From Staphylococcus phage vB_SurM-PSU4, in sequence record OL436245.1: 64,000 nt of DNA; one strand, written 5' to 3'. A model generated the notes under the pieces. The model had not been told where the DNA came from, made no database searches, and saw only the letters and a list, made by a program, of their open reading frames with translations. Below, in pieces: positions 9,751 to 52,382 of this stretch (its first letter is position 1; each line of letters opens with the position of its first letter). The position numbers and the translations under genes were made by a program.

Positions 9751-9790
9751 ATAAAAATAACTAGGTCGTGCTATATTAGTTGTGTATAGA

Positions 9791-9819: not shown

Positions 9820-9836
9820 ATAGAGAGGTGAAAATT

Positions 9837-16019: not shown

Positions 16020-16069
16020 AATATTATATTAGAACAGATAGAAAACTTATAAAGAAGGGAAATAACAAA

Positions 16070-16588
16070 ATGGCAATTACAACCTATAATGCTAGGGTGG
16101 AACTAGCTAAGTTTATCATAAGTAAGATTAATACAACTTACTTAGTGATTGGAAGACCAACACCTTGGTCAAATGAACAAGCACCACCTGAGCCTACTGA
16201 AAGCACAACAAAATTAGATGATATAATCGGATATAAGAAAGTAACAAAAGCTGTATTAGTTAGACCAACTAAAGACAGTGATTCAAACAGAGAAATTATA
16301 TCTTACGGAAACAAATCATGGACAGTGATTGGTGAGGGAGAAGCTATAGCAGAAGGAGCTAAATGGGTGTACTTTGAAAGTAAAGTAGTCGGAGACGAAC
16401 TACCAACAGGTACACATAGACAAGCAGGAATTGCAATTGATGTAGAGCCTAAAACAGGTATCGGTAAACAGGCATTATTGCCTAGTGAGTTAAATTCACA
16501 AGGTACTTTAATGTTCTATGATAATAAACAATTCCAAAACAGAACTGAACAAGTAACTACAACAGAGCGAATGGTTGTAGAATTTTAA
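16070..16588 (+). CDS. Conserved tail/baseplate structural protein, 172 aa
   Basis: ATG 9 nt after AAGAAGGGA. Lies between two large tail genes. Confidence 0.55.
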   Translation: MAITTYNARVELAKFIISKINTTYLVIGRPTPWSNEQAPPEPTESTTKLDDIIGYKKVTKAVLVRPTKDSDSNREIISYGNKSWTVIGEGEAIAEGAKWVYFESKVVGDELPTGTHRQAGIAIDVEPKTGIGKQALLPSELNSQGTLMFYDNKQFQNRTEQVTTTERMVVEF

Positions 16589-16606
16589 TAAAAGGAGAGA
16601 AAATGA

Positions 16607-19600: not shown

Positions 19601-20104
19601 GACATGGATGAAGGTGTAACGTTCGATATGCTTACTTGGCAACCAATTGGTAACTATCAAGATATTGACTTAGGGGCAAAAGCTAGACAGATTAAACTTA
19701 GAGCTACATTTAAATCTAATAGATATATTTCCCCATTACTAAGCTCAAGTGACTTAACATTTACTACATTCTTAACTGAATTAACAGGTAGTTATGTAGG
19801 TAGAGCAATCGACATGTCAGAAGCACCATACAACACTATTAGAATAAGTTATGAAGCTTTCTTACCACAAGGAACAAAAGTAACACCTAAATATTCTACA
19901 GATAATGGTTCTACATGGAAAACGTTCACTGAGACACCAGATGTTAGAAGAGCAAACACAGAATTCTATAGATATGTTATAGAAGAAAAAGTTAAATCTA
20001 GTGGAACATATGATAACTTTAAAGTTCGTTTAGATTTAGAAACACAAAATAGCTTCTTAAGACCAAGAATTAGAAGACTTATGTGTACGATGAGAGAAGA
20101 ATAA
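16607..20104 (+). CDS. Adsorption-associated tail protein, 1165 aa
   Basis: AAAGGAGAG RBS. Its size and its position just before the receptor-binding protein genes match the ~1150-aa adsorption-associated tail proteins of Twort-like phages. Confidence 0.6.
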   Translation: MAVNLRTSPYNDRFDPRKDRVKLLFNPDRPLQQAELNEMQSIIEYYQKNFGDSIFKDGDIQSGLNFTLTQDNVLTLNPGYVYIGGRIRYYDGDDSIQLSGVGKETIGLKLTQTIITPDEDSSLLDQTNGVPSYFSRGADRLEEKLSIGLNDPTSAPIHVFQDGKLYIRSLNPEAEKFHTILAERTYDESGSYKVEGFNIFSEERPEDKGKDTVPVVIDAGKAYVEGFKVDKPTSTRISVPKSTATKKGTNESTVFNKSDNKITLANAPVKSVDRVSGQVLVTKEEVGRASAGDSADYLKNNTAFEVVKVWTESSPGNTLKEYKQGQDYVLTNGQEINWSPQGQEPQGGTSYYVSYKYTRTMREGTDYKVVNVNEGEGVLERTYLDFNLNGVKPIDQSVILVDYTYYLARKDVLMLNKYGDITRLEGEPDILRMAVAPQQTDPLNLKLGIVTVLPNSDEAYCEEDSVKRLSMSELQKLKTRLENVEYNQAVNALDQDAMEGQDPLTLRSVFSEGFISLDKADITNSNFGVSFSFEDAEATLQFTTAVNEPSIDKNKTNAHIWGRLVSAPFTEERALFQSQASETMNVNPYNIPNKQGVLRITPSEDNWIDEERITVTDQKTKTMTVNRWWRHLDDPNRFGSNEQAAFNNIKLDAGQSWGNQGRTAGAAYRYDTKYGRTGTMLEAGGTRTLEEAIEFIRVRDINFTVTGLHPNADNLYVLFDGIRCPIVPHTDRGFTKGSESGTIRTNAKGRAEGHFTIPAGVRCGTREVTIRNEESVASTSYSAHGRKKTVQDVIIRTRVTINLVDPLAQSFQFLDNRTISSLGLYFASKGDKNSNVTIQIREMGDQGFPTKVICAETVLNADDIKISNDASAETRVYFDDPMMAQAGKEYAIVVITENDDYTMWIGTRTQPKIDKPKETISGNPYLEGVLFSSSNASTWSVHQNSDMKFGVYTSRYEENGTIEFDPIENVEADRVVLMSSYLTPENTGCFWEAKIIFEDMDEGVTFDMLTWQPIGNYQDIDLGAKARQIKLRATFKSNRYISPLLSSSDLTFTTFLTELTGSYVGRAIDMSEAPYNTIRISYEAFLPQGTKVTPKYSTDNGSTWKTFTETPDVRRANTEFYRYVIEEKVKSSGTYDNFKVRLDLETQNSFLRPRIRRLMCTMREE

Positions 20105-33938: not shown

Positions 33939-35000
33939 ATGAGATTTGAAGAATTTTTACAAGGTACTTTAGGTGCACCCTTAGAAAGTACAGTAGGGGA
34001 ATTAAGATATAATTGTCCTTTCTGTTCAGATACAAAGAAACGTTTCTATGTTAAACAATCTTTAGATTCTAAGAATGGACAATACATTTGTTTTAATTGT
34101 GGTGAAACAGGAAATCCTATTACATTTATGAAACAATATTATAACGTTGATAGTAGAAATGCAGTAAAACTATTAGAACAAAATAATATTGAAATAGACA
34201 TGGATAAAACAATTAAGTTTGATAATAGTCTATCAGATAGTGAAAAGTTAATACTTCTACTAAGAGGTGTAGAACCTGAAGAATATGAAGTTAAAAAGAA
34301 GCCACCTAAACTACCTTTTAATTATAAATTCTTATCTCAAAACTTATATAATAAAGAAGCTGTTCCTTTTCTAAGGTACCTAAATAGTAGAGGGGTTACA
34401 CTACAGCAAATTATCGAACATAATATTGCTTATACTATAGAGTCTAAATGTTATAAGTCAGATAATATTCAAACCTTTACTTTCTACAATAGTTTAATAT
34501 TCTTTACGTATAATGCACAAGGTGAATACGTTTATTGGAATACAAGAAGTATTATCCCAACCAAGATGAAAACTATTAATGCACCTGCAAGTGATGAACA
34601 GTATGGTAAGAAAGATGTTTTGTTTAATTTTAATAAAGCTAAAGACCAAAGAATGTTAATTATAACTGAGGGTGTTTTTGATGCACTAACATTTCATCAA
34701 TACGGTATAGCTACATTCGGTAAAGCAGTATCTGATAATCAAATTAAATTGATTAAAAAATATGTAAAACCAGACACAGATATTTATTTAATGCTAGATA
34801 GTGATGCTTATAAGTACAATGTAAAAGTAGCTAGAGAATTATTTAAGAAGTTTCCAAATACTTATGTTGTACCTCATGGAGAGGAAGACCCAAACGATTT
34901 AGGTACTGAGAAAGCTTTTCAATTAATTAAAGACAAAAGAATTAAAGCAACACCAGAAGGATTAACAAATTATGAAATTCAACAAAAACTTATAAATTAA
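33939..35000 (+). CDS. DNA primase (DnaG-type: CHC2 zinc finger plus TOPRIM)
   Basis: Zinc finger YNCPFCSD...H...CFNCGETGN and TOPRIM motifs LIITEGVFDALT and LMLDSDAYK. Confidence 0.85.
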   Translation: MRFEEFLQGTLGAPLESTVGELRYNCPFCSDTKKRFYVKQSLDSKNGQYICFNCGETGNPITFMKQYYNVDSRNAVKLLEQNNIEIDMDKTIKFDNSLSDSEKLILLLRGVEPEEYEVKKKPPKLPFNYKFLSQNLYNKEAVPFLRYLNSRGVTLQQIIEHNIAYTIESKCYKSDNIQTFTFYNSLIFFTYNAQGEYVYWNTRSIIPTKMKTINAPASDEQYGKKDVLFNFNKAKDQRMLIITEGVFDALTFHQYGIATFGKAVSDNQIKLIKKYVKPDTDIYLMLDSDAYKYNVKVARELFKKFPNTYVVPHGEEDPNDLGTEKAFQLIKDKRIKATPEGLTNYEIQQKLIN

Positions 35001-35002
35001 GC

Positions 35003-35031
35003 TTGTTAAATACAAGATATTGTGGTATAAT
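35003..35031 (+). promoter_or_regulatory. Promoter TTGTTA-17-TGgTATAAT
   Basis: Extended -10 at 35023-35031. Lies in the gap after the primase gene. Confidence 0.5.
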
Positions 35032-35060
35032 GAATATATCGACACAAGGAGGAAATGTAG

Positions 35061-35378
35061 ATGGAAGAGAAAGAAAGTATTTTAAATTATATTGATAAAG
35101 TTATTCATAGTATGACAATGAAAGATAAACAAGACTATGAAGAAACTTTAAAAGAAGGTAGAGATATTACTGTTACACGAGAAGAATTAGCATTAGTTGT
35201 AACTAACTTAATTCGTAACATTGATACACAAATGACTAATACAGAAGATGGGTTAGTTGAAGATTTAAACATAATGATTGAATCTATGATTGACACAGGA
35301 ATTATTACAGAAGATACTGTAGAAGAGATGCAAAATAAAATTTATGAAAATAAACAAAAAGTAGAGGAGAATGAATAA
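35061..35378 (+). CDS. Small highly acidic protein, 105 aa
   Basis: GGAGGA RBS. Very Glu/Asp-rich. Confidence 0.5.
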   Translation: MEEKESILNYIDKVIHSMTMKDKQDYEETLKEGRDITVTREELALVVTNLIRNIDTQMTNTEDGLVEDLNIMIESMIDTGIITEDTVEEMQNKIYENKQKVEENE

Positions 35379-35773
35379 TGGCTGAAGAAAAACAAATTAG
35401 TGAACAAGACTTAAGAATGTGGGTAGAATTTATTACGTTTGGTAAAGTAGAAGGTAAAGAACCTTCTGAAAAACAAGTAAAACAATTAGAACGTTTATCT
35501 AAGAGAACAGTAAACTTAGCTGATGCTTCTACAATTGCACAGTACTTAGTAAGACTAGAAACTCAAAGTGATATTAATAACTTAACAGCAATGTTAGACT
35601 CAGTATTCTTTATTTTACGTGATAAAATTAATGTAACTACAGAAGATATTGAAAGAGCTCTTGATGAAAGAGAGAAAGAAATCCAAGAGAAATTCAAAGA
35701 AGACCAAGAAGCAGAAGAAAAAGAAAATAAATCTGATGAGAAAGTTGTCCAATTCAAGAAAGACGATAAATAA
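35378..35773 (+). CDS. Hypothetical protein, 131 aa, with Glu/Lys-rich tail
   Basis: ATAATG overlap with the upstream stop. Confidence 0.5.
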   Translation: MAEEKQISEQDLRMWVEFITFGKVEGKEPSEKQVKQLERLSKRTVNLADASTIAQYLVRLETQSDINNLTAMLDSVFFILRDKINVTTEDIERALDEREKEIQEKFKEDQEAEEKENKSDEKVVQFKKDDK

Positions 35774-36381
35774 TGGTTAATAGTAAACAAAAAGGTAATA
35801 CTTTCGAGAGAAAGATTGCTAAAGTCCTTGGTGATTGGTGGGGGTTCAAGTTTTCTAGAACTCCGCAATCAGGAGGTTCTCATTGGTTAGCTGATAATAA
35901 TGCGGTAGGGGATATAGTTGCTCCTCCGCAAGCTAACTTTCCATTAGTAATAGAATGTAAGCATAGAGAAAATTGGACAATAGAAAATATAATGCTTAAT
36001 AACAAAGACCCACATACTTGGTGGGAGCAAGTAATCACTGATTCAAATAGAATAGGTAAAGCTCCTTGTTTGATATTTACAAGGAATAGAGCTAACACAT
36101 TTGTAGCATTACCATACATTGAAAGTGTATATGAAGATGTAAGAGACACAGGTGAGCCTATCATGAGAACGGATTTCATTACTGAAAATATAAGAAAAGA
36201 TAAACAATATTTTGATGTAATGATAATGACCATTGATACGTTGACCAGTTTTAAGACCTCCTATATTAAATATCACTATGACGATTTTAAGCCTGAACCT
36301 TATAAAGTGATAGAAAGTGAAACTACAAAAGATAATAAAGATGAGGACAAGGCTATAGAAAATATTATGGATAAATTATAA
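35773..36381 (+). CDS. Hjc-like Holliday junction resolvase (PD-(D/E)xK)
   Basis: KGNTFERKIAKVL ... VGDIVA ... LVIECKHRE matches the Hjc motif pattern KGxxxERxxxxxL ... D ... ExK. Confidence 0.6.
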   Translation: MVNSKQKGNTFERKIAKVLGDWWGFKFSRTPQSGGSHWLADNNAVGDIVAPPQANFPLVIECKHRENWTIENIMLNNKDPHTWWEQVITDSNRIGKAPCLIFTRNRANTFVALPYIESVYEDVRDTGEPIMRTDFITENIRKDKQYFDVMIMTIDTLTSFKTSYIKYHYDDFKPEPYKVIESETTKDNKDEDKAIENIMDKL

Positions 36382-36396
36382 GGAGAATGTTTAATA

Positions 36397-36708
36397 ATGG
36401 CAGTAATTGATATAGAAACAAAAGATTTTGATAATAAAACAAAAGAAGGGTTAAACCTAGTTGATTTATGGGCACCTTGGTGTAGCGTATGTAAAATGGT
36501 TATGCCTTCTGTAGAAGCTATCGGTGAAGAATCTAATGACCTGGATGTTCTTAAAGTTAATATTGATGAAGAACCTGATGTATCTTCAAATCTTGGAGTT
36601 ATGAGTATTCCTACATTGATACTATACAAAGATGGAGAAAAAGTAGATAGTATTAATGGTTTTGCACCTAAAGAAAAAATTGAGGAAATGATTGAAAAAC
36701 ATAAATAA
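36397..36708 (+). CDS. Thioredoxin-like protein (CxxC = WCSVC)
   Basis: LVDLWAPWCSVCKMV thioredoxin-fold active site. Lies directly upstream of the RNR genes. Confidence 0.65.
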   Translation: MAVIDIETKDFDNKTKEGLNLVDLWAPWCSVCKMVMPSVEAIGEESNDLDVLKVNIDEEPDVSSNLGVMSIPTLILYKDGEKVDSINGFAPKEKIEEMIEKHK

Positions 36709-36724
36709 AAAAGGGGATATTTGA

Positions 36725-38074
36725 TTGATTACGCAAATTAAGAAACGTGACGGGTCTGTTGTGGAGTATGACCTAAATAAAATAACAAATGCTATCCTAA
36801 GAGCTAATACAGAAACGAATGAGTTCTTGGAAGATAATATCGATACTTTAGTAGAAGATGTAGATAGTCTATTAGAAGAAAAAGAAGAGACACTTACAGT
36901 AGAGTGTGTTCAAGATACAGTGGAAGAAGTATTGCTTGGTAGTAAGTATAAAGATACTGCTAAGGCTTTTATTTTGTATAGAGACAAAAGAGATAGAGAA
37001 CGTAGACGAGATATATTTAAACCAAGAAAAGAATTAAAACCTTATGAATACCCTGAATTACTAGAATATGCAGATGCTATTAGAAACAGTTATTGGATTC
37101 ATACCGAATTTAATTATACAAGTGATATTCAAGACTTTAAACAAAATGTTAAACCTCACGAACGAACTGCAATTAAAAATGCTATGTTAGCTATTGCACA
37201 AGTTGAAGTTGCTGTTAAAACATTTTGGGGTGACCTATATCATCGTATGCCTAAATGGGAAACAGGTGCAGTTGGTGCAACGTTCTCAGAATCAGAAGTT
37301 AGACATGCTGATGCTTACTCTCACCTACTAGAATTGTTAGGATTAAATGAAGAATTTAAACATATAGACGATATACCTGCATTAAGAGAGCGTGTAGATG
37401 AGCTTACTATGCACACTAAATTAAGTAAGAGTGAAGATAATAGAGACTATGTACTATCAGTATTACTATTCTCACTATTTATTGAGCATGTATCATTATT
37501 CAGTCAATTCTTAATCATGATGAGTTTCAATAAACATAAGAACCTATTCAGAGGGTTATCTAATGCTATTGAGGCTACATCTAAAGAAGAACAAATTCAT
37601 GGTCTATTTGGTATTGAAATTATTAATATCTTAAGAGGAGAACATCCTGAATGGTTCGATGGGGAAATGAAACGTACAGTATATGAAGCATGTGAACATT
37701 CATATGAAACAGAGAAAAAAGTTTTAGACTGGTTATATGAAGACGGTGAGTTAGAGTTCTTACCTAAGCGTACTGTAAAAGAATTTATTAAAAACAGATT
37801 AAACAATTCTTTAGAATCAATCGGATTTGAAAAATTATTTAAAATTGATGAAGAAGTGTTAGCAGAAACAGCATGGTTTGATGATGAAGTTATTAGTACG
37901 AAACTAACGGATTTCTTATCTAAACGTTCTGTTAACTATACTAAGTTTACAAACACAGTAACAGAAGATACACTATTCTCATCTAATTCAGAGTTTGAAG
38001 AAAATGAAGAAAAATTGTCTAAAGACAAGGTTAATGAGATTTTAAGAATGAGAATGTTAACACTAGGTAATTAA
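36725..38074 (+). CDS. Ribonucleotide reductase small (radical-generating) subunit with N-terminal ATP-cone
   Basis: TTG start after GGGG. Residues 1-95 have an ATP-cone signature (IKKRDGSVVEYDLNKITNAILRA...VQDTVEEVL...AKAFILYRDKR). Ferritin-like R2 metal-site motifs follow (SESEVRHADAYSHLL, EEQIHGLFGIEIIN). Confidence 0.8.
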   Translation: MITQIKKRDGSVVEYDLNKITNAILRANTETNEFLEDNIDTLVEDVDSLLEEKEETLTVECVQDTVEEVLLGSKYKDTAKAFILYRDKRDRERRRDIFKPRKELKPYEYPELLEYADAIRNSYWIHTEFNYTSDIQDFKQNVKPHERTAIKNAMLAIAQVEVAVKTFWGDLYHRMPKWETGAVGATFSESEVRHADAYSHLLELLGLNEEFKHIDDIPALRERVDELTMHTKLSKSEDNRDYVLSVLLFSLFIEHVSLFSQFLIMMSFNKHKNLFRGLSNAIEATSKEEQIHGLFGIEIINILRGEHPEWFDGEMKRTVYEACEHSYETEKKVLDWLYEDGELEFLPKRTVKEFIKNRLNNSLESIGFEKLFKIDEEVLAETAWFDDEVISTKLTDFLSKRSVNYTKFTNTVTEDTLFSSNSEFEENEEKLSKDKVNEILRMRMLTLGN

Positions 38075-38090
38075 TGGAGGAGAATAGATA

Positions 38091-39773
38091 TTGGCAAACT
38101 TTGAATGGTTAAACACAGATTCACGAGTATTCTTAGAGAGAGGATACTTAAGTGAAGGTGAGACACCTGAACAACGAATTAAAGATATAGCAAATAAAGC
38201 TGAGGATATCTTAGGTATTGAAGGTTTTTCAGATAAATTTTATGACTACATGAGTAGAGGTTTTTACTCTTTATCAAGTCCTGTATGGGCTAACTTTGGT
38301 AAAGGTAAGGGATTAAGTATCAGCTGTTTTGGTAGTTATGTTGAAGATAACATCCCAAGTATTTTAAACTCTGCCAGTGAAGTAGGAATAATGAGTAAGT
38401 ATGGTGGAGGTACTAGCGGTTACTTTGGTGAAATAAGACCTCGAGGTGCTAAAATCACTGATAATGGAGAGACAAGTGGTTCTGTACATTTTATGAAATT
38501 ATTTGAAACAGAAACAGATGTAGTATCTCAGGGAAACACACGTAGAGGACGTTTTAGTCCTTACTTACCTATTGACCACCCTGATATTGATGAATTTTTA
38601 GAAATAGGTACAGAAGGTAATCCAATCCAAAACATGACACATGCAGTATCTATTACAGATGACTGGATGTTAGAGATGATTAATGGTGATAGAGAGAAAC
38701 GTAGAATATGGTCTAAAGTACTTACACGTAGAACTCAACTAGGTTTCCCTTATATATTCTTCCATACTAATGCTAATAAAAATACAGTAGATGTTTATAA
38801 AGATAAAGGATTAGTAATTAATAACTCAAACTTATGTTCAGAGATAATGTTACCTAATAAAGAAGATTGGTCATTTGTTTGTGACTTATCTAGTATGAAC
38901 TTAGTTAAATATGAAGAATGGAAAGACACTGATGCAGTAGAAACAATGGTATATTTCTTAGATGCAGTAATGAGTGAATTTATTTCAGACTTAGAGTCAT
39001 TGAGAGATTCACAAGATAGAGAAGAAGTAGAAGCTTTTAAACTAATGGAACGTGCTTATAACTTTGCTAAAGAAAATCGTGCCTTAGGTTTAGGTGTGTT
39101 AGGTTGGCACTCATACTTACAATCTAAACTTATTCCTTTTGAAAGTGTAGAGGCAAGTAGATTAAATTCACAAATATTTGTTTTAATTAGAAAACGTGCA
39201 TATAAAGCAAGTGAAGAGTTAGCAAACTTATTAGGAGAACCAGAAATTCTAAAAGGATACGGTAGACGTAACACAACGTTACTTGCTGTAGCTCCAACAA
39301 CTTCAAGTTCATTCATTCTTGGACAAGTTTCTAAATCAATAGAACCTTTCATGAGTAACTACTATGTTGTTGATACTGCTAAAGTTAAAAAAACTATGAT
39401 TAACCCTTATCTAAAAGAATTATTACAAGAAAAAGGTAAGGACACAAAAGAAGTGATGGAAAGTATTAGAGATAATGATGGTTCTGTTCAACACTTAGAT
39501 TTCCTAAATCAAACAGAAAAAGAAGTATTTAAGACTTATGGGGAAATCAATCAATATAATATTTTAGACCAAGCAGCAACAAGACAATATTATATTGACC
39601 AAGGACAATCTCTAAATATTATGGTTAATCCTACTAATGTTACTTCTGAAGAATTAAATGAATTATACCTATTTGCTTGGGCTAATGGAATTAAATCATT
39701 ATATTACCAACATGGTACTAATGCAGCACAACAATTCAACCTATCAAAACTATGTATTAATTGCGAAGCTTAA
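38091..39773 (+). CDS. Ribonucleotide reductase catalytic subunit, minimal 560-aa form lacking ATP-cone and N-terminal domain
   Basis: TTG start after GGAGG. Motifs SISCFGSYVEDNIP, active-site NLCSEI and C-terminal CINCEA. The protein begins at the region homologous to roughly residue 200 onward of canonical alpha subunits. Confidence 0.85.
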   Translation: MANFEWLNTDSRVFLERGYLSEGETPEQRIKDIANKAEDILGIEGFSDKFYDYMSRGFYSLSSPVWANFGKGKGLSISCFGSYVEDNIPSILNSASEVGIMSKYGGGTSGYFGEIRPRGAKITDNGETSGSVHFMKLFETETDVVSQGNTRRGRFSPYLPIDHPDIDEFLEIGTEGNPIQNMTHAVSITDDWMLEMINGDREKRRIWSKVLTRRTQLGFPYIFFHTNANKNTVDVYKDKGLVINNSNLCSEIMLPNKEDWSFVCDLSSMNLVKYEEWKDTDAVETMVYFLDAVMSEFISDLESLRDSQDREEVEAFKLMERAYNFAKENRALGLGVLGWHSYLQSKLIPFESVEASRLNSQIFVLIRKRAYKASEELANLLGEPEILKGYGRRNTTLLAVAPTTSSSFILGQVSKSIEPFMSNYYVVDTAKVKKTMINPYLKELLQEKGKDTKEVMESIRDNDGSVQHLDFLNQTEKEVFKTYGEINQYNILDQAATRQYYIDQGQSLNIMVNPTNVTSEELNELYLFAWANGIKSLYYQHGTNAAQQFNLSKLCINCEA

Positions 39774-39790
39774 CAATAAAGGAGATTATT

Positions 39791-40153
39791 ATGGAGCCTA
39801 AAAAGATTGAACAAGTAGAAAGTTTAGTAGAATTAGAAACTTTAGCTGGAACTAATGATAAGTTATTAGTAATGATTAGTGAAGATAATTGTGGTTTTTG
39901 TTCTATGTTAGAGTTTGGTATTGGAAGTTATATAGATGCCTTACAATTAGATATTCACTCAGTTAACTTAAATACAGACCAAGCTAAAGAAGGAAAAGAA
40001 ACTGTAGAAAAGTATTTTGATATTAAAGAAGTACCTACACTATTAGGTTTTAAAGATGGAGAGCTAGTTTCTCAAAAAGAAATAAAAGAACCTACAGAAG
40101 GTATTAATAAAATGGATGCTTTAGTAAAAGACTTAGGAATTAGTTTAAGCTAA
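39791..40153 (+). CDS. Second thioredoxin/glutaredoxin-like protein (CGFC)
   Basis: The ATG at 39791 has AAAGGAG 6 nt upstream; the TTG at 39761 in the track lies inside the RNR gene. Carries a DNCGFCSML motif. Confidence 0.55.
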   Translation: MEPKKIEQVESLVELETLAGTNDKLLVMISEDNCGFCSMLEFGIGSYIDALQLDIHSVNLNTDQAKEGKETVEKYFDIKEVPTLLGFKDGELVSQKEIKEPTEGINKMDALVKDLGISLS

Positions 40154-40160
40154 TTATATT

Positions 40161-40188
40161 TTGAATACACCACTACTTATGTTATAAT
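40161..40188 (+). promoter_or_regulatory. Promoter TTGAAT-16-TGtTATAAT
   Basis: Extended -10 at 40180-40188. The -10 lies inside the loop of the hairpin at 40167-40210. Confidence 0.45.
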
Positions 40189-40215
40189 ATATGTAACAGG
40201 GTAGTGGTGTTTTTT
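40167..40215 (+). terminator. Hairpin terminator (10-bp perfect stem acaccactac/gtagtggtgt, 24-nt loop, TTTTT)
   Basis: Perfect inverted repeat followed by a T-run. The large loop carries the promoter's -10 element. Confidence 0.45.
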
Positions 40216-40241
40216 AATATAAAATTAAAGGAGAATTAAAG

Positions 40242-40970
40242 TTGGGTAAAAATAAAACACTGACTATATATAATAGTGATAGGTACTTTAACATTCATAC
40301 AAAGACAAAAGATGAATTCCAAGAGTACATAAAAGTAACTAGACTTAATGAAGATGAAATAGAAAAAGAAATGAATGAATTAGAAAAGAAGTCTAAGAGA
40401 TACAAAGCTAAGACAGATAAGAAGTACATGTTATTTAATGAACAGTATAATAATGATAGGCTTATAGAAAAGATATGTTCACATAGTAGTGGGGTTACAT
40501 TTTATACAGATACAGTTGTTCCTTACTATGTATTTAAACAATTATCTAATAATAAAAACTCTACTGTAGTTTATCAAATGAAAGAAGATTTCACAGATAA
40601 ACAAATTGATAATATATCTTTAAGTTATATGGGTGTGAAAGTAGTTATTGATGTAGCTATTACTTTCCCTTATGTTAACCCCTATCTTATTATTAAAGGT
40701 CTATATAGTTTGAAGATGAGTGTAGATGAGATTCATTTATCATTTCCTAGACTAACAAGTATCCAAGAAGACCAAGAAGAGTATTACTTCTATGATGGGG
40801 AAGGGTATGATGTTAAACCTGATTACAAATATGATTTTACAACTAAACTAAGACTCCCATTATCGGTATGGAAAATGTATCTCTATATAATAACAAACAC
40901 AGATAAAGACTACGAAGATGTAACTAAAATAATTACCAAAGTCAAAAAGGAGAATAATATAACCTCATGA
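40242..40970 (+). CDS. Hypothetical protein, 242 aa
   Basis: TTG start 8 nt after AAAGGAG. Confidence 0.5.
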   Translation: MGKNKTLTIYNSDRYFNIHTKTKDEFQEYIKVTRLNEDEIEKEMNELEKKSKRYKAKTDKKYMLFNEQYNNDRLIEKICSHSSGVTFYTDTVVPYYVFKQLSNNKNSTVVYQMKEDFTDKQIDNISLSYMGVKVVIDVAITFPYVNPYLIIKGLYSLKMSVDEIHLSFPRLTSIQEDQEEYYFYDGEGYDVKPDYKYDFTTKLRLPLSVWKMYLYIITNTDKDYEDVTKIITKVKKENNITS

Positions 40971-41266
40971 TTAACAGAAAAGACTTAGCTAGAAGAATAT
41001 CTGATAAGACAGGTTATTTTATAAGAGATATAGAAGAAATACTAGAAGCCGAAGAAGATAGTATAGCAGAATTTATATCAGAAGGACATAAGAAAATCAA
41101 ACATCATAAACTATTTCAATTAGAGATTAAGACTAGACCAAGTAAGACAGCTTATGATGGATTTAATAAAGAATATTTTGAATTACCAGAGAGAAAATAT
41201 ATAGAATTTAAACCTTTAACACAACTAGAAAAAGCAATAGAAGATTTAAACACAGAAAGCAATTAG
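40967..41266 (+). CDS. HU/IHF-family DNA-binding protein (TF1-like)
   Basis: The C-terminal arm FQLEIKTRPSKTAYDGFNKEYFELPERKYIEFKPLTQL fits the HU beta-arm pattern (GFG.F...R..R.G.NP.T......FK.G..L). Confidence 0.65.
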   Translation: MINRKDLARRISDKTGYFIRDIEEILEAEEDSIAEFISEGHKKIKHHKLFQLEIKTRPSKTAYDGFNKEYFELPERKYIEFKPLTQLEKAIEDLNTESN

Positions 41267-41285
41267 TACTTGCTTTCTTTTTTTA
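41254..41285 (+). terminator. Rho-independent terminator
   Basis: agaaagcaa-ttagtac-ttgctttct followed by a 7-T run. Confidence 0.55.
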
Positions 41286-41298
41286 TTTATGCTATACT
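41270..41298 (+). promoter_or_regulatory. Promoter TTGCTT-17-TGcTATACT overlapping the terminator's 3' arm
   Basis: The -35 lies within the 3' arm of the hairpin. Extended -10 at 41290-41298. Confidence 0.4.
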
Positions 41299-41331
41299 AT
41301 ATACATAACGAATAAAAGGAGGATAAAAGAA

Positions 41332-41610
41332 ATGAAAATAACAGTACAGGATTTATTTGACAAGTATGACTTAGAGAGATACCTAAGAACAACAACAGAG
41401 GTAAATATTCAGAATGAAACAATCGAAGAAAGGGTTGCTGAGGAGGTTGATTATGCTTTCAATACACAGAATCTTAACAGAAAGGATTTAGTAAATAATA
41501 TCACTTCAACTGTGTTAGAATACTTAGAGGGAAAAAGTGATGTTACAAAAGGACATATAACTTTAGATGACTTTGCTAACCATGATACAATTGAAATTGA
41601 GGAGGAATAA
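41332..41610 (+). CDS. Small acidic protein, 92 aa
   Basis: AAAAGGAGG RBS. Confidence 0.5.
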   Translation: MKITVQDLFDKYDLERYLRTTTEVNIQNETIEERVAEEVDYAFNTQNLNRKDLVNNITSTVLEYLEGKSDVTKGHITLDDFANHDTIEIEEE

Positions 41611-41612
41611 CT

Positions 41613-44600
41613 TTGAAAGTTTTATTTTTATTAGATTTCATAAGGGTAGACCATTACGACAATAATGGACATTGGAAATACTTGCAAACACAGAATGGTA
41701 AAACATTTAAACAAGTTATAGAATCAACAACAAGTTTAAGAAGAGAAGGACAACGTAAAGATTATGTATTTGACTACGTATATAATCAAATTCCTCAACC
41801 TATTTACAATAACTATGGTAAGGTTATTAAATATGAAGACGTAAAGCTAACAGAAGCTAAACCTTTCATGGAAGAACTTAAAGCTAGAATAGAAGAAATC
41901 AAACCAGATATTATAGTACCTACAGGTAAGTTAGGTATTAAGATGTTATTGAATGTAACTAAGTTAGGTTCTGTTAGAGGGGTTCCTAAAAAGGTAGATA
42001 TAGGGGAGGTTTCTACTTGGGTATTACCGACATATAGTATTGAATATACAAATGTAAATAAAAACAGTGAAAGACAAGTCTTAGCTGATATGGATATATT
42101 AGAAAGATATGTACAAAACGGTGAAGAAGTCTTTAAACCTAAAGAAGTTAAATATGAGTTTGTAGATAATATTGAAAGAGTAAGAGAAATATTTACTAAA
42201 GAAGTTAAGCAAGATGAGAATGATGGTGTAGATATAACTGCATGGGATTTAGAAACCAATTCATTAAGACCAGACTTAGAAGGAAGTAAAGCTCTAGTAG
42301 CATCTCTAAGTTGGAAGAATGGTCAAGGAGTAACAATACCTTTATACAAATCAGATTTTGAGTGGGCTAATGGACAACAAGATATTGATGAAGTGTTAAG
42401 TTTAATGAAAGAATGGTTAGCTGATAAAGAAGATGTAAAAGTTGGACACAACATAGGTTATGATGAGAATTTCTTAATGTCTACAGAAAATATACAAGAG
42501 TATGAAAATGTAGAAGACACTAAAGTGGGTTGGTATTTAGCAGTATCTCAAGAAGCTAGTGAGTCTTTAAGACTTACAAATTTAGCTTATGAAGCCACTG
42601 ATATGGGTGGGTATGATGAACCATTAGAAAACTTTAAAGTATGGTTTGTTACAAAACTATTAAAAGATTTAGATAAAGAAATGAAAGAGATACAAAAAGA
42701 AAATAAGAAGATAGCTAAAAAAGAATATGGTATTAAAGCAAATGAATATAAGAAGTGGATAGAAGACAATATCGATTTCACTAAAGATTTAGAAGAACAA
42801 TACACTAACTTAAAGCTTAATCCAGAAGTTATAACAAAAGAACATATTAATGACAAAGTATTAGAAGAATCTGAAGAATATGTGAACTTATCTGATAAAG
42901 GTAAAGTATATACCCTAGAAACAGCTATTAGTTTGATTAATAAATTCAGAGAACAGAAGAATGTTGTTAATGAAGTAGATGGAGGTAAGTTTAGTTACGA
43001 CTGGTTCCCTATAGAACTAATGCACCCTTATGCTAGTGGAGATGTTGATGTATGTCGAAGAATTTATTGTGAAGTATTAAGAAAGCTAGAGAAACAAGAC
43101 AGACCTAAAGCTCTTAGACTTCTAAAGGAAGATTACCCAAGACTAACAAGAACATTAGCTAGAATACAAAGCAATGGTTTCCATATGGATAAAGATTATA
43201 TGAAAAAGAATGATGAAGCTTATAGAGAAGAGATGGAAAAAACTCATGAAGAAATGAGAAAACATTGGTCAGTTATTGAGTTTGAAGAAATAAGATATAA
43301 TCTCTTTGAAAAAGGTTTAGAAGAATTTGAAAACAAACCACCTAAAGATAGAGACAAAGAGTTAGCTGAGTATAGAACGAAGTTTAAAGATGGTGGTTGG
43401 AAGTTTAGCCCAAGTTCAGGAGAACATAAAGGTGAAATATTATATGACATTTTAGGTATATCATTACCTTATGATAAACAGTATGTAAAAGATAAACCTT
43501 TCAATGCAAATATTCCTGAGAGTGAATTAACGTGGAAAGACTATAGAACAAATAAAGATGCTATAGACTATGCTTTAGATAAAGAAGAAAACGAAAGTAC
43601 TAAAGAACTTTTAGAACTAATGCAATACTATGCAACTTTACAAACTAAGAGAACTGGGTTTACTTATAAATTACCTAGAATTATAAATAAAGAAACAGGT
43701 AATTTACATCCTGGGTATAACATCACAGGAACAGAAACTTCTAGGTTAAGTAGTAGTAATCCTAACATCCAACAAATTCCTGCACATACAAGTGATGTAG
43801 ATAAATTTGACTATAAACATCCTATTAAGTCTTCTTTTATTTCCAGACATAAGGATGGTGTTATTCTTCAATTTGACTATTCAGCCCTAGAGATGCGTAT
43901 TATGGGAGCTTACACAAAAGACGAACATATGCTTCAAGCTTTCTTAGACGGTGAGGATTTCCATAAATCTACTGCAAGTATTGTTTATGGTAAACCTATA
44001 AGTGAAGTAACTTCAGAAGAGAGACAAGCTACAAAAGCTGTAAACTTCGGTATTGCCTATGGACAATCTTCATCCACTCTAGCAAATAATTTAGGTATAT
44101 CTAAAGAAGAAGGGGAAGAAATATTTAATAAATATTATGCTACTAAACCTAAGGTTAAAGACTCTATAGACTATGTTCATAATTTTGTTCAGGAAAATGG
44201 TTATGTAGAAACAATGAGCGGACATAGAAGATTTTTAGCAGATGCTCAAAGTATGGATAAGAAAAAGAGAAGTGAAGCTTTGAGACAATCATATAATACA
44301 GTTATACAAGGGTCAGGGTCTTATTTAACAAATATGGCTTTAACCTATATAGATGATTATATACAAGGAAAAAACATGAAAAGTGATATTGTAGCTACAG
44401 TACATGATAGTATCGTACTAGATTGTCCACCTGAAGAGGTTAGTATTATGTATAAAGTTGTAAAGACTATAATGGAGAATCTACCTTTTGATTTCTTAAA
44501 GGTAGAATACAAGGGAGAAAATATACAATACCCTATAGCATCTGATGCTGAAATAGGTTTTAACTATAATGATGCTGTTGAATATGATGAAGAAGAAGTA

Positions 44601-44753
44601 AAAGAATTTAATTCTTTTAAAGGTTATATTAATTATTATTTATCTTTACAGAAACTTAAAGATTACTTTGAATCTAAGAAGATTAATGAAGAGCAATATA
44701 AAGAAGCAATTAGGCAAGTGGAAGAACAGAAACATTTATATCAAGAAATGTAA
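41613..44753 (+). CDS. DNA polymerase I-type (family A) with N-terminal 3'-5' exonuclease, uninterrupted 1046 aa
   Basis: TTG start after GAGGAGG. Motif A DYSALEMRIM, motif B RQATKAVNFGIAYGQ and motif C VHDSIVLD are present. N-terminal exonuclease region is present. No intron or intein disruption. Confidence 0.9.
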   Translation: MKVLFLLDFIRVDHYDNNGHWKYLQTQNGKTFKQVIESTTSLRREGQRKDYVFDYVYNQIPQPIYNNYGKVIKYEDVKLTEAKPFMEELKARIEEIKPDIIVPTGKLGIKMLLNVTKLGSVRGVPKKVDIGEVSTWVLPTYSIEYTNVNKNSERQVLADMDILERYVQNGEEVFKPKEVKYEFVDNIERVREIFTKEVKQDENDGVDITAWDLETNSLRPDLEGSKALVASLSWKNGQGVTIPLYKSDFEWANGQQDIDEVLSLMKEWLADKEDVKVGHNIGYDENFLMSTENIQEYENVEDTKVGWYLAVSQEASESLRLTNLAYEATDMGGYDEPLENFKVWFVTKLLKDLDKEMKEIQKENKKIAKKEYGIKANEYKKWIEDNIDFTKDLEEQYTNLKLNPEVITKEHINDKVLEESEEYVNLSDKGKVYTLETAISLINKFREQKNVVNEVDGGKFSYDWFPIELMHPYASGDVDVCRRIYCEVLRKLEKQDRPKALRLLKEDYPRLTRTLARIQSNGFHMDKDYMKKNDEAYREEMEKTHEEMRKHWSVIEFEEIRYNLFEKGLEEFENKPPKDRDKELAEYRTKFKDGGWKFSPSSGEHKGEILYDILGISLPYDKQYVKDKPFNANIPESELTWKDYRTNKDAIDYALDKEENESTKELLELMQYYATLQTKRTGFTYKLPRIINKETGNLHPGYNITGTETSRLSSSNPNIQQIPAHTSDVDKFDYKHPIKSSFISRHKDGVILQFDYSALEMRIMGAYTKDEHMLQAFLDGEDFHKSTASIVYGKPISEVTSEERQATKAVNFGIAYGQSSSTLANNLGISKEEGEEIFNKYYATKPKVKDSIDYVHNFVQENGYVETMSGHRRFLADAQSMDKKKRSEALRQSYNTVIQGSGSYLTNMALTYIDDYIQGKNMKSDIVATVHDSIVLDCPPEEVSIMYKVVKTIMENLPFDFLKVEYKGENIQYPIASDAEIGFNYNDAVEYDEEEVKEFNSFKGYINYYLSLQKLKDYFESKKINEEQYKEAIRQVEEQKHLYQEM

Positions 44754-49861: not shown

Positions 49862-51088
49862 ATGATGAATTCATTTAGTAATTTTTTATCACAAGAACAA
49901 CAAAGTACAGAGAGTAATTTCAATAATAACCAACAAGAGAGATACCAACCAAAGAATAAAACAATTCGTTTAAATAAACAAAACCCTGAGATTATTGTAC
50001 GTGTATTACCAGGAGTTAAAACACAAGAAGATACAGAAGGTCTTCAATTCTTTAGTAAATTCCGTAGTATTTTCTTAAACTATGTTAAAGGTGATGGAAC
50101 AGCTACAAGTTCACCATTCACATTACCATTCACTATGGGAGAATCAGTATTAGATTCATTTATTTCTAACTGGAAGAATAATAACGTTAAGATTAATGAC
50201 TATAATACAAACCCTGCACAACGTTATTTAGTAAACGTAATCCCATTAGTATCTAATCAAGGTCAATTCCAATATCAAGTAGACCCTATGGGTAATGTTC
50301 TTGTAGCACCTATGGAATTAACAAAAACATTATTTGACGACTTATCAGTTAAGTTACAAGATGAAAACTTAATGCCAACACAAGATTCTAACTTAAATTT
50401 TATCTCAGAAAACCATGCCTTTGCAGTTAAACTATATCGTACAGGTCAAGGAACAGATACAAGTTATAAAGCAGAAGTTTACCAACGTCAAGATTTAGGT
50501 CAATTACCACAAGGATGGGAAAACTTAACAAGTGACATTCAAAAAATGGCTGAACCAACAGAGGAAAGTTCACCAGGTTTTGTAAACTTTGTAATCAACA
50601 GTATTAATGGTACAGATAAATCAATCAAGAACTTTGATTTTGAAGATGATGGTAATACAGCACCAAGTCAAGGTCAATCTGGAGGACAATCACCTTCACA
50701 GCAACAAATCGATAATCAAATGCCTTCAAACTTAGGAGCTCCAACTCAAGGTCAACCTGTAGAACAACAACAACAGCCTGTTCAACAGTCTCAACCTACT
50801 CAACAAGGTAATGTTGATTGGAATAACTTAGCTCAACAACAATCTCAACCAGAACAAGGTAATCCATGGTCTGGTGTGGATACAGGTAGTGTAGATGACT
50901 CACAAGTACCATTCAATACACAACCACAACAACAAACACAACCAACACAACCAACACAAAATCAACAACAAGCACCACAACAGAACCAACAACCGCAACA
51001 ACAAGCACAACCTAATATTCCTCAAGAACAACAATCACAGAACAAAATGAAGAGTGTAGATGATATTCTAGGCAATATTGGATTATAA
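49862..51088 (+). CDS. Protein with Gln/Pro-rich low-complexity C-terminal half (possible ssDNA-binding or scaffold protein)
   Basis: GGAGAGGA RBS. The C-terminal ~150 aa are CAA/CAG-rich low complexity. Confidence 0.5.
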   Translation: MMNSFSNFLSQEQQSTESNFNNNQQERYQPKNKTIRLNKQNPEIIVRVLPGVKTQEDTEGLQFFSKFRSIFLNYVKGDGTATSSPFTLPFTMGESVLDSFISNWKNNNVKINDYNTNPAQRYLVNVIPLVSNQGQFQYQVDPMGNVLVAPMELTKTLFDDLSVKLQDENLMPTQDSNLNFISENHAFAVKLYRTGQGTDTSYKAEVYQRQDLGQLPQGWENLTSDIQKMAEPTEESSPGFVNFVINSINGTDKSIKNFDFEDDGNTAPSQGQSGGQSPSQQQIDNQMPSNLGAPTQGQPVEQQQQPVQQSQPTQQGNVDWNNLAQQQSQPEQGNPWSGVDTGSVDDSQVPFNTQPQQQTQPTQPTQNQQQAPQQNQQPQQQAQPNIPQEQQSQNKMKSVDDILGNIGL

Positions 51089-51097
51089 GAATTTAAT

Positions 51098-51128
51098 AGT
51101 AGCACTTAATTGTGCTACTTTATTTTTT
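51098..51128 (+). terminator. Rho-independent terminator
   Basis: agtagcac-ttaatt-gtgctact followed by ttattttttt. Confidence 0.55.
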
Positions 51129-51155
51129 AGTTATATAAGAGGAGGAAAATGATTT

Positions 51156-52382
51156 ATGGCAAGAAGTAGTAAAAAACAATTTGATATGTCTGATTTAAAT
51201 ACAATTGATTTAGGTAAAGAAATGGGATTGACAATCCTATCAGATACAAACAAAGCAGATATTAAAAATATATTACCTACAAGAGTACCTCAATATGATA
51301 GAATTATGGGTGGAGGGATTCCTTTAGGTAGACTTACCGAGGTTTACGGGATACCTGGGAGCGGCAAGAGTACTTTTGCTGTGCACCTAACAAAAACACT
51401 AATTGATTTAGGTATTATTACTGTTTGGGTAGATACAGAAGGTACAGCCGATAATGCAAGAATGGAACAACTAGGTGTGGATATTACTAAGATATTCTCT
51501 ATTCAAGCAGGAGAAGGTCAGAGACTTAAAAATACAGTTGAGTTATCTATTGAACAAGTAGGTAAGGAATTAGAGTATTGGGTAGATACTTTTAATGAGA
51601 AGTACCCAGGTGTACCTATTGTATTTATATGGGATTCACTAGGTGCTACACGCTCACAAACAGAAATAGATGGCGGTATCGATACTAAACAGATGGGTAT
51701 AAGAGCTTCTGCCACACAAAAAGTTATTAATGCTATAACACCTAAATTAAATAATACAAACACAGGTATTATTGTTGTAAACCAAGCAAGAGACGACATG
51801 GATGCAGGTATGTATGGGGATAAAGTTAAATCTGGTGGAGGTAAAGCTTTTGAGCATAGTGCTAGTTTAAGACTTAAAGTTAATAAAGGAGCACAAGTAA
51901 AACAACATAAAGAAACAGCAGGTAAAGAAGAATATTCAGGACATTCTATGAGATTGGAAACTAAAAAGTCTAAGTTATCTAGACCTAACCAAAAAGCAAG
52001 TTCTGATTTACTTTCAGAATGGGAATTATCTACAGGAGAAGTTATTAACGGTTTAGACCCTGAGTATACAATTTATCAGGAAGCTGTCGATAAAGGTTTT
52101 ATTACTAAAGGAGCATGGAGAAACTACGTTACTTTAAATGGTGAAGAAATTAAATTACGTGATGCTGAATGGGTTCCTAGACTTAAGGAAGATACTGAGT
52201 TGTTTGAAGAGCTATTTAAACGTACTTATGTAGCAAATTTCCCTAAAGGGTATGCACCATTAAAGAATAAAGATGTAGATATTACAACTATACCTGAATA
52301 TAAAGCACTAGAAGAATATTATGATGAACTAGAAAAAGAAAAACCTAAAGAAGAAACAAAAGGAGAGCAGGAAGACCAATAA
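51156..52382 (+). CDS. RecA/UvsX-like recombinase
   Basis: Walker A GIPGSGKSTFA in a RecA-fold context; AAGAGGAGG RBS. Confidence 0.85.
   Translation: MARSSKKQFDMSDLNTIDLGKEMGLTILSDTNKADIKNILPTRVPQYDRIMGGGIPLGRLTEVYGIPGSGKSTFAVHLTKTLIDLGIITVWVDTEGTADNARMEQLGVDITKIFSIQAGEGQRLKNTVELSIEQVGKELEYWVDTFNEKYPGVPIVFIWDSLGATRSQTEIDGGIDTKQMGIRASATQKVINAITPKLNNTNTGIIVVNQARDDMDAGMYGDKVKSGGGKAFEHSASLRLKVNKGAQVKQHKETAGKEEYSGHSMRLETKKSKLSRPNQKASSDLLSEWELSTGEVINGLDPEYTIYQEAVDKGFITKGAWRNYVTLNGEEIKLRDAEWVPRLKEDTELFEELFKRTYVANFPKGYAPLKNKDVDITTIPEYKALEEYYDELEKEKPKEETKGEQEDQ

Follow-up and report, generated by a model that had tools for sequence, protein, structure and literature searches.

Organization of the RNR Operon

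Phage vB_SurM-PSU4, a Staphylococcus myophage of the Herelleviridae (Baoshanvirus type), very probably carries an intact class Id (NrdAi/NrdBi) aerobic ribonucleotide reductase (RNR) operon, and class Id and class Ib very probably represent two interchangeable RNR modules for a single slot in the genomes of Twort-like staphylococcal phages. The sequence itself shows how the domains are arranged, that both subunits are full length, which catalytic, metal-site and cone residues are present, in what order the genes lie and that NrdI is absent; the E-values of the matches that confirmed the operon were far beyond chance.

The window analyzed was a 64,000-nucleotide stretch of sequence record OL436245.1. 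ORF checking of the window showed the operon order trx1-nrdB-nrdA-trx2, with four intact ORFs on the plus strand: trx1 (36397..36708, 103 aa), nrdB (36725..38074, 449 aa), nrdA (38091..39773, 560 aa), and trx2 (39791..40153, 120 aa). Only the start of trx2 called for correction. Ribosome-binding site (RBS) motifs were found upstream of all four genes, and the beta-then-alpha order agreed with that reported for class Id operons with a cone. Downstream of trx2, a strong intrinsic terminator-like hairpin (40167..40216, plus strand; MFE -27.3 kcal/mol, z = -6.1 against 200 shuffles) was followed directly by UUUUUU, and this hairpin is probably the 3' end of the transcription unit. A consensus terminator scan did not pick up the hairpin, probably because it falls outside the simple stem-loop pattern of the scan.

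As the earlier note had claimed, the RNR genes were flanked by two thioredoxin-like genes. The trx1 product passed the Pfam cut-off (PF00085, E = 8.7e-24) as well as that of the TIGR01068 thioredoxin equivalog (102.1 bits, cut-off 96.8). Its active site was W-C29-S-V-C32-K, in which CSVC replaced the canonical CGPC, and its cis-Pro motif was SIPT; the gene was preceded by an AAGGAG RBS and sat within the swapped cassette described below. By analogy, trx1 is probably the reductant of the NrdA C-terminal cysteine pair. The trx2 product passed the Pfam cut-off only, and weakly (PF00085, E = 5.4e-6; 26.8 bits, cut-off 23.5), with the motifs N-C34-G-F-C37 and EVPT (cis-Pro). Both are thioredoxin-fold proteins with a CxxC and a cis-Pro motif. 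The start of trx2 is most likely the ATG at 39791, behind an AAGGAG RBS, rather than the TTG at 39761, and the resulting 120 aa agreed with a 363-nt gene in the annotation of the closest relative. The trx2 product shared 36% identity with Tio of Kayvirus P4W and 48% with an 'oxidoreductase' of phage JDF86; trx2 is the orthologue of the Kayvirus 'Tio', a phage backbone gene, and just its 5' end lies in the swapped cassette. BLAST analysis at E<1e-3 revealed no thioredoxin-like genes beside the best 80 bacterial loci.

Sequence Analysis of NrdB

Profile searches with PF03477, PF00268, and PF02867 found all three domains where they had been claimed, with the ATP-cone on NrdB only. NrdB was composed of an ATP-cone (aa ~1-95; 36725..37009, plus strand), a dimetal R2 core (aa ~96-390), an alpha-binding tail in which Y405 was present and which ended in ...DTLF418, and a 31-aa extension (aa 419-449). 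PF03477 matched aa 4-91 (E = 6.1e-20; 72 bits, cut-off 25.8) over profile positions 2-88 of 88, and the R2 core profile PF00268 matched aa 102-375 (E = 5e-56). The N-terminal 95 aa thus matched the ATP-cone model, and cone and core shared one uninterrupted ORF, in agreement with the proposed ATP-cone::NrdB fusion.

Alignment with solved structures showed that NrdB belonged by sequence with the characterised NrdBi proteins rather than with the betas of classes Ia, Ib, Ic, or Ie. The best match was Leeuwenhoekiella blandensis NrdB (PDB 5OLK; E = 4e-158), with 60% identity over 417 residues (aa 2-418, cone included), 44% in the cone and 65% in the core. Other solved betas followed at 2e-141 (6SF4, L. 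blandensis) and about 1e-95 (6CWO and related chains), whereas class Ic and Ib betas reached just 1e-7 to 1e-9. The 5OLK paper (PMC5794259) gives Glu170, Lys174, Trp177, Tyr207, Glu263, and Thr294 as the class Id signature residues of L. blandensis NrdB; NrdBi features are a Glu on helix 1, a Lys projecting to the metal site, a fully conserved helix 1 Trp, and a Tyr that is not hydrogen-bonded. All six signature residues were identical in the phage protein (E161, K165, W168, Y198, E254, and T285), and two ExxH motifs were located at 191 and 289. By analogy with its homologues, phage NrdB probably needs no NrdI to assemble a Mn2(III/IV) cofactor and carries no stable tyrosyl radical.

The cone was the least conserved region of NrdB relative to L. 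blandensis. Nevertheless, K7 and R8 were invariant, and the equivalents of the L. blandensis tetramer interface were identical at D64, E67, K80, I83, and R86, with conservative changes at L71 (Met in L. blandensis) and L84 (Ile in L. blandensis). The phage cone agreed with the family at 17 of the 19 columns that were at least 90% conserved, and the other two were Tyr/Phe swaps. Both characterised NrdBi cones are functional switches (PMC5794259, PMC6187632), and ATP stoichiometry differs between the cones of Facklamia ignava and L. blandensis (PMC6187632). The NrdB cone is predicted from its sequence to be an ATP/dATP-sensing activity switch. The earlier proposal of activity regulation through the radical subunit gained support from this homology, at the level of a prediction.

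Sequence Analysis of NrdA

The catalytic subunit matched the PF02867 barrel (E = 4.9e-92), and the Pfam profile search over the full 560 aa gave no match to the PF03477 ATP-cone. The all-alpha N-domain PF00317 gave a weak, sub-threshold match at aa 12-73 (26.8 bits, cut-off 28), so a reduced N-terminal helical segment persists; the earlier description of NrdA as lacking an ATP-cone was correct, while the statement that it also lacked the N-terminal domain was slightly overstated. NrdA had high similarity to NCBIfam TIGR02510 ('NrdE-prime'; 738.1 bits, cut-off 602.25; profile positions 13-560 of 560), to NF006577 (677 bits, cut-off 620), and, at full length, to PDB 6DQX (E = 2.9e-212) and 6DQW (E = 1.6e-183). 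The catalytic set was complete, comprising C79, N247, C249 (thiyl), E251, C264, Y538-Y539, and C555-x-x-C558. A 12-residue insertion at approximately aa 302-313 was common to most close homologues and missing from both solved structures (6DQX and 6DQW).

The start codon of nrdA was TTG. The gap between the beta stop and this codon was 16 nt and held a GGAGGAG RBS, upstream stops were present in all three frames, and the alignments with TIGR02510 and 6DQX ran from residue 2-3 to residue 559-560. Adjacent alphas were about 559-582 aa long in 72 bacterial loci, and the published NrdAi median is 564 aa; at 560 aa, NrdA shows the normal NrdAi length rather than an unusual loss.

Absence of NrdI and Cassette Exchange

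When the 64-kb window was searched by tblastn with two phage NrdI proteins (from Kayvirus P4W and Baoshanvirus JDF86), the best match reached only E = 0.08, consistent with the earlier statement that the window holds no NrdI-like gene. A class Ib RNR was rejected: besides the missing NrdI, scores were far below the cut-offs of TIGR04170 (NrdE; 148 bits, cut-off 750) and TIGR04171 (NrdF; 57 bits, cut-off 355).

Comparative genome analysis showed that Kayvirus P4W and the same-genus phages JDF86, phiSA_BS1, and phiSA_BS2 carried nrdI-nrdE-nrdF in the same slot, so the contrast drawn earlier with the operons of Twort-like phages was borne out. On one side the slot was bordered by a resolvase-like gene and on the other by the thioredoxin-like gene Tio/trx2, with an IHF-like gene and polA farther downstream. 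In the same-genus class Ib phages the flanks shared 93% and 89% nucleotide identity with the window; with nrdI-nrdE-nrdF in the same slot of such near relatives, the RNR cassette has been cleanly swapped. In Kayvirus and most Baoshanvirus phages, the class Ib cassette has the same role, phage dNTP supply; however, it requires NrdI, lacks an ATP-cone, and has the alpha-then-beta order, whereas the order here was beta-then-alpha. Its alpha was only 23-27% identical to phage NrdA, and its beta was undetectable by BLAST.

Distribution of the ATP-Cone::NrdB Fusion

The earlier note had the arrangement described so far in a few bacterial NrdB proteins, which falls short of the published record. The 2018 eLife paper (PMC5794259) lists 93 RefSeq NrdBi with N-terminal cones, "encoded by viruses and bacteria", and the fusion was present in 79 of the 80 best-matching GTDB bacterial loci and in 64 deposited phage records from several genera. 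As the enzyme type was described and structurally solved in 2018 and is widespread, the phage case is ordinary: the reading is correct yet already known, another class Id operon with the cone on the small subunit.

The closest GenBank relative was Golestan101-M, with a beta 97.8% identical to that of vB_SurM-PSU4 and a broken nrdA in which 1.41 kb was replaced by 6 nt plus a frameshift, a lesion that could be an assembly error. The same operon was intact in two IMG/VR contigs. In the related Silviavirus, nrdA was interrupted by homing-endonuclease insertions. The GenBank labels of related phages (UHP46, Golestan101-M, V1SA20, and others) read 'ribonucleotide reductase of class Ia (aerobic) alpha/beta subunit'.

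Proposed Mechanism and Characterised Relatives

Just two cone-bearing NrdB proteins have been studied biochemically, and the cofactor, dATP inhibition, and redoxin partner proposed here for the phage enzyme are modeled on its homologues. By homology to L. blandensis and F. ignava, NrdB would build a Mn2(III/IV) cofactor in an NrdI-free manner, with no stable tyrosyl radical. When ATP occupies the cone, beta would be a dimer and form active alpha2beta2; with dATP, the cones of two beta dimers would associate into a beta4 tetramer, which would hold alpha in inactive alpha2beta4 or alpha4beta4, the asymmetric active complex being sterically blocked. After turnover, C555/C558 of NrdA would re-reduce the active-site pair C79/C264, and the C-terminal pair would in turn be reduced by a phage thioredoxin, trx1 and possibly trx2, presumably recycled by host thioredoxin reductase.

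L. blandensis NrdB is the founding example of ATP-cone regulation via the radical subunit (Rozman Grinberg et al., eLife 2018, PMC5794259), and a further paper deals with its class Id RNR (Front Mol Biosci 2021, PMC8350387). The phage enzyme shares with it the ATP-cone, linker, R2 core, and flexible C-terminal tail, the metal-site, Lys/Trp, and cone-interface residues, the beta-then-alpha order, a short cone-less alpha, and a predicted independence of NrdI. It differs in the 31 additional C-terminal residues of beta after ...DTLF, in a cone just 44% identical, and in the thioredoxin-like genes that bracket the operon; moreover, L. blandensis is a marine flavobacterium, whereas the phage is a Firmicute phage. 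In F. ignava, the Grx::ATP-cone::NrdBi protein has a dATP off-switch and assembles its Mn(III)/Mn(IV) cofactor independently of NrdI (J Biol Chem 2018, PMC6187632). It is likewise a Firmicute-associated cone-bearing NrdBi with a redoxin physically associated with the RNR, but its redoxin is a glutaredoxin domain fused to NrdB, while those of the phage are separate flanking thioredoxin-type genes.

6DQX and 6DQW are the class Id alphas of Actinobacillus ureae and Flavobacterium johnsoniae (Rose et al. 2019, 'minimal architecture', as cited in PMC9669993). These alphas are similar in size (chains of 574-585 residues with tags, 560 aa in the phage) and share the C-terminal CxxC, but lack the 12-residue insertion of the phage alpha. 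Phage beta residues 94-418 matched solved beta chains of 307-348 residues, which are too short for an ATP-cone.

Alternative Explanations

An ordinary class Ia (Fe2-tyrosyl radical) RNR, the annotation given to UHP46, Golestan101-M, V1SA20, and others, is very unlikely. Y198 does stand at the canonical radical position, and the metal is not fixed by sequence alone; however, the equivalent Tyr207 is present in L. blandensis yet is not a radical site (5OLK paper, PMC5794259), and the phage protein has Lys165 and Trp168, which belong to the distorted helix 1 described for NrdBi. The class Ia beta model NF006576 gave only a partial match (E = 1.8e-6; 27 bits, cut-off 346) and E. coli-type alphas matched at only E~1e-12, with class Id structures ahead by about 100 orders of magnitude, and the 'class Ia' labels have the look of default names from annotation pipelines. 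There is a negligible probability that alpha is short only through an artefact, in which an intron, a frameshift, or a mis-called start would have removed the ATP-cone of a normal, longer NrdA. The TTG start and the interrupted Silviavirus nrdA genes speak for this idea, but the 16-nt gap to nrdB, the placed RBS, and the stops in all upstream frames oppose it, as do the end-to-end alignments with the 560-position model and the 574-585-residue chains and the similar lengths of bacterial and published NrdAi. No upstream exon or frame encoding an ATP-cone spliced to nrdA was found in the sequence, and the possibility of a mis-called start or frameshift, considered in the earlier note, was excluded.

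For the class Id operon itself, the cone might be kept without acting as a dATP off-switch, either binding ATP only or serving oligomerisation or stability, and an enzyme running without such control would fit a lytic lifestyle. The ATP-cone tends to be lost from phage RNRs, possibly under compact-genome pressure, and was missing in 59 of the best 80 viral NrdBi loci, which makes a non-inhibiting cone conceivable; the RNR of phage T4 is not known to be switched off by dATP despite a cone-like N-terminus, and the cone here was the most diverged region. This explanation is nevertheless improbable: canonical cones typically score like the 72 bits obtained here with Pfam, the invariant K7/R8 pair was retained together with the salt-bridge and interface positions D64, E67, K80, and R86, and both characterised NrdBi cones work as switches. 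The keeping of the cone in 64 phage records of several genera argues for selection. The operon could also be an accessory that the phage can spare or is losing, with no working enzyme behind it, since nrdA is disrupted in Golestan101-M and sister phages use class Ib instead. With four intact ORFs, every catalytic residue present, two IMG/VR contigs carrying the intact operon, and a Golestan101-M lesion that may stem from assembly, there is very little likelihood of this. The preferred reading remains an intact class Id operon.

C-Terminal Extension of NrdB

The extension at aa 419-449 of NrdB (37979..38071, plus strand; SSNSEFEENEEKLSKDKVNEILRMRMLTLGN) consisted of an acidic linker and then a basic stretch with the motif KDKVNxILRxRM. 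Its columns were gapped in 92-96% of 95 distinct cone-bearing homologues; bacterial homologues were without it, and bacterial class Id betas ended before aa 419. In contrast, related myophages of Staphylococcus and Mammaliicoccus retained it even at 64-68% identity. In the characterised enzymes nothing corresponds to this segment, which comes after the usual alpha-binding C-terminus and could affect how alpha and beta interact.

That this conserved 31-aa segment, specific to the phage lineage, is an add-on altering the docking of beta on alpha is a speculative and rather unlikely suggestion. For example, it might give beta an additional point of attachment, by which the complex with alpha is made tighter or biased, or offer a binding handle to a phage redoxin or some other phage protein. 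If the extension were functional in this way, the staphylococcal-phage enzymes would form a class Id variant of their own and not simply belong to the class.

Organization of the RNR operon

Four co-oriented ORFs were found in the region 36397–40153, at the positions described in the earlier note: trx1 (36397–36708, 103 aa), nrdB (36725–38074, 449 aa), nrdA (38091–39773, 560 aa) and trx2, a second thioredoxin-like gene (39791–40153, 120 aa). The start of trx2 was most likely the ATG at 39791, not the TTG at 39761; AAGGAG was located 5' of this ATG, and the resulting 120 aa agreed with the closest relative, where this gene is annotated with a length of 363 nt. The trx1 product cleared the TIGR01068 thioredoxin equivalog cut-off, and that of trx2 cleared only the Pfam thioredoxin threshold.

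A Shine-Dalgarno-like motif was present upstream of every operon gene, and the intergenic gaps were 16–17 nt. A hairpin with a U-run at about 40167–40216 (-27.3 kcal/mol, z = -6.1) probably ends the transcription unit; it was not picked up by the consensus terminator scan, though it was strong by folding. An Rfam scan of 35000–42000 (E ≤ 0.1) for structured RNAs and introns returned zero family matches.

ATP-cone of NrdB and class assignment

Profile analysis showed that an ATP-cone was fused to the R2 core on the small subunit, as the earlier note had claimed. NrdB aa 4–91 comprised a full ATP-cone (PF03477, E = 6.1e-20, 72 bits, cut-off 25.8), and the R2 core followed C-terminally at aa 102–375 (PF00268, E = 5e-56). 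The closest solved structure to the beta subunit (NrdB) was Leeuwenhoekiella blandensis NrdB (5OLK, E = 4e-158); the match spanned beta residues 2–418 and thus included the cone. Beta shared 60% identity with 5OLK overall (cone 44%, core 65%), and both subunits were at least 60% identical to solved structures.

Regulation by an ATP-cone on the radical-generating subunit was first discovered in the 5OLK protein (2018, PMC5794259). The same paper singles out Glu170, Lys174, Trp177, Tyr207, Glu263, and Thr294 (L. blandensis numbering), and the phage NrdB was identical at all six. Residues of the cone-cone interface were the same as in L. blandensis or conservatively replaced. Among the columns at least 90% conserved over 95 distinct cone-bearing homologues, the window cone agreed at 17 of 19, the remaining two being Tyr/Phe swaps. 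The 5OLK match, the identical signature residues and the conserved cone columns identify the operon, at the level of sequence, as a class Id (NrdAi/NrdBi) RNR with an ATP-cone on beta. Class Ia and class Ib models scored far below their cut-offs. The annotation of the corresponding genes in related GenBank entries as "class Ia" is not supported.

Minimal but complete alpha subunit

NrdA (alpha) contained the RNR barrel (PF02867, E = 4.9e-92). It had been described as lacking both an ATP-cone and the N-terminal domain; the Pfam profile search found no cone in NrdA, while the second part held incompletely, since aa 12–73 still gave a match to the all-alpha N-domain, albeit below the threshold.

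Truncation of alpha by a mis-called start, a frameshift or an intron was excluded. The nrdB stop and the nrdA start were separated by 16 nt, and stop codons were present upstream in all three frames. NrdA aligned almost end to end with both references, covering positions 13–560 of the 560-position NCBIfam profile TIGR02510 ("NrdE-prime"; 738 bits, cut-off 602) and, with residues 3 to 559, the class Id alpha 6DQX (E = 2.9e-212). Alphas adjoining a cone-bearing beta were about 559–582 aa long in 72 bacterial loci, and the published median of subclass NrdAi is 564 aa (2022 analysis). The catalytic set was complete (C79, C264, N247/C249/E251, Y538-Y539, and C-terminal C555-x-x-C558). The short alpha of 560 aa is thus real, and the earlier note's reading of it as a minimal subunit stood.

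A 12-residue insertion was located at about aa 302–313 of NrdA (38994–39029); it was missing in both solved class Id alphas, 6DQX and 6DQW, and common to most close homologues. Counted against the beta cone, the long form occurred with a cone in 80 cases and without one in 6, and the short form in 12 and 35 cases, respectively. Co-evolution of the insertion with the cone was rejected as a phylogenetic artefact: in the alpha tree the insertion state changed only twice (the cone, four times), and a 12-member viral clade had the cone and no insertion. The apparent link was due to shared ancestry.

Proposed mechanism

The 5OLK homology and the cone residues supported the earlier interpretation of an RNR regulated via its radical subunit. 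By analogy with described class Id enzymes, beta would assemble a Mn2(III/IV) cofactor independently of NrdI and would have no stable tyrosyl radical. Searches of the 64-kb window with the NrdI proteins of Kayvirus P4W and Baoshanvirus JDF86 found no homologue (best E = 0.08), in agreement with the earlier note. With ATP bound, beta2 and alpha2 would form the active complex; with dATP bound, which inhibits the L. blandensis enzyme with a Ki of about 20 µM, the cones would join two beta dimers into beta4. The alpha2beta4 and alpha4beta4 complexes would be inactive, the tetramer probably hindering the asymmetric active arrangement sterically. The C-terminal Cys pair of alpha would be re-reduced by thioredoxin, for which trx1 is the obvious candidate.

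Comparison with class Ib cassettes

In Kayvirus P4W, the corresponding slot contained nrdI-nrdE-nrdF-ORF-tio, with a resolvase-like gene on one side and an IHF-like gene and polA on the other. The Baoshanvirus phages JDF86, phiSA_BS1, and phiSA_BS2 also carried class Ib in this slot, so the arrangement in the window is indeed unlike that of these other Twort-like phages. These three belong to the genus of the window's closest relatives; their backbone proteins were mostly 95–99% identical and their flanks shared 93% and 89% nucleotide identity, yet they carried the class Ib cassette instead.

The swapped cassette was 36393–39881 in the window and 6623–11231 in JDF86 (OQ129426). Similarity to JDF86 broke off at 36392, where the first cassette gene has its RBS, and returned near 39882, in the region of the trx2 CxxC codons. 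It follows that a segment of about 3.5 kb (trx1, nrdB, nrdA and the trx2 5' end) had been swapped for one of about 4.6 kb, which comprises nrdI, nrdE with an intron and homing endonuclease, nrdF and the beginning of the trx2 orthologue. The class Id for class Ib exchange is a clean swap within one genus. The trx2 product shared 36% identity with Kayvirus Tio and 48% with the JDF86 orthologue, and trx2 is itself a gene of the phage backbone.

A thioredoxin-like gene also adjoined NrdBi-NrdAi, directly upstream or downstream, on some unrelated uncultured viral contigs (L107, L110 and L145, at about 4727–4993; L121 and L132, at about 8417–8713); none was detected next to the 80 bacterial loci.

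In vB_SsapH-Golestan101-M (LC557520), the closest GenBank relative, positions 7821–7828 corresponded to 38219–39629 of the window, 1.41 kb of nrdA being reduced to 6 nt with a shifted frame. The 53-aa remnant was annotated "ribonucleotide reductase of class Ia"; the lesion may be a genuine deletion or may have arisen in assembly. The window DNA polymerase I (41613–44753) was one unbroken ORF of 1046 aa, and polA was fragmented by homing-endonuclease or intron insertions in Golestan101-M and P4W. Several Silviavirus nrdA genes were similarly interrupted; the window nrdA was intron-free. A 92-aa gene at 41332–41610 was 31–37% identical to its positional counterpart in relatives (neighbour genes, 94–100%) and looks like another small local replacement. 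The G+C content was higher at 1–2000, 16000–20000 and 50000–52000 (0.33–0.38 vs about 0.29 elsewhere), with a GC skew dip at 50–52 kb.

Distribution of the arrangement

The 2018 paper (PMC5794259) lists 93 NrdBi sequences from RefSeq that carry a cone at the N-terminus, "encoded by viruses and bacteria", and the 2022 analysis found cones on beta almost only in beta-then-alpha operons, an order frequent in NrdAi. Scanning one genome per GTDB species gave at least 569 stretches encoding relatives; in 79 of the best 80, which came from Flavobacteriaceae, Patescibacteria, Erysipelothrix, Lysinibacillus, and other groups, cone and beta shared one ORF, and a short alpha followed immediately downstream. 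The earlier description of "a few bacterial NrdB proteins" was thus an understatement. In IMG/VR, the cone was present in 21 of the best 80 loci.

Among deposited phage genomes, 64 records matched at least 80% of beta, and every full-length match among those listed came from a staphylococcal phage, for example Silviavirus Remus and SA11. At the nucleotide level, the operon also had relatives in Mammaliicoccus phages. The window beta had a 100% identical copy in IMG/VR contigs and was 97.8% identical to that of Golestan101-M.

Work published in 2018–2021 had established control through a cone on the radical subunit, the minimal alpha of class Id and the independence from NrdI, with viruses named as carriers; the arrangement is a known, well-characterised and widespread RNR subclass noted in viruses before. 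The literature search returned no paper linking "ATP-cone" with "Staphylococcus phage" or mentioning a staphylococcal-phage cone, and the supplementary files examined for the two 2018 papers (L. blandensis, PMC5794259; F. ignava, PMC6187632) did not name staphylococcal phages. This is an annotation gap, not a gap in biology.

C-terminal extension of NrdB

Almost all bacterial homologues ended at ...DTLF418, and the phage beta ran 31 residues further (aa 419–449, window 37979–38071; SSNSEFEENEEKLSKDKVNEILRMRMLTLGN), past the usual class Id C-terminus. The extension was absent in 92–96% of the 95 cone-bearing homologues. Apart from two of the compared loci (L002 and L086), its conservation was confined to the lineage of staphylococcal and Mammaliicoccus myophages, and it was kept in the phage lineage down to 64–68% identity with the core motif KDKVNxILRxRM.

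Significance

The phage operon adds little to RNR biology and is of modest practical worth for phage genomics. In dozens of therapy-candidate staphylococcal myophage genomes (Silviavirus, Mammaliicoccus phages and some Baoshanvirus), these genes are annotated as "hypothetical" or "class Ia"; the correct label would be "class Id NrdB with ATP-cone / NrdA". The phage enzymes could provide compact class Id models from a Gram-positive setting that are easy to express. Only the beta tail and the cassette swap are perhaps worth more work. The class Ib/Id swap in near-identical genomes is a natural experiment on how a phage benefits from either type of RNR, and such a comparison could bear on manganese or iron supply, NrdI and flavin dependence, and dATP feedback.
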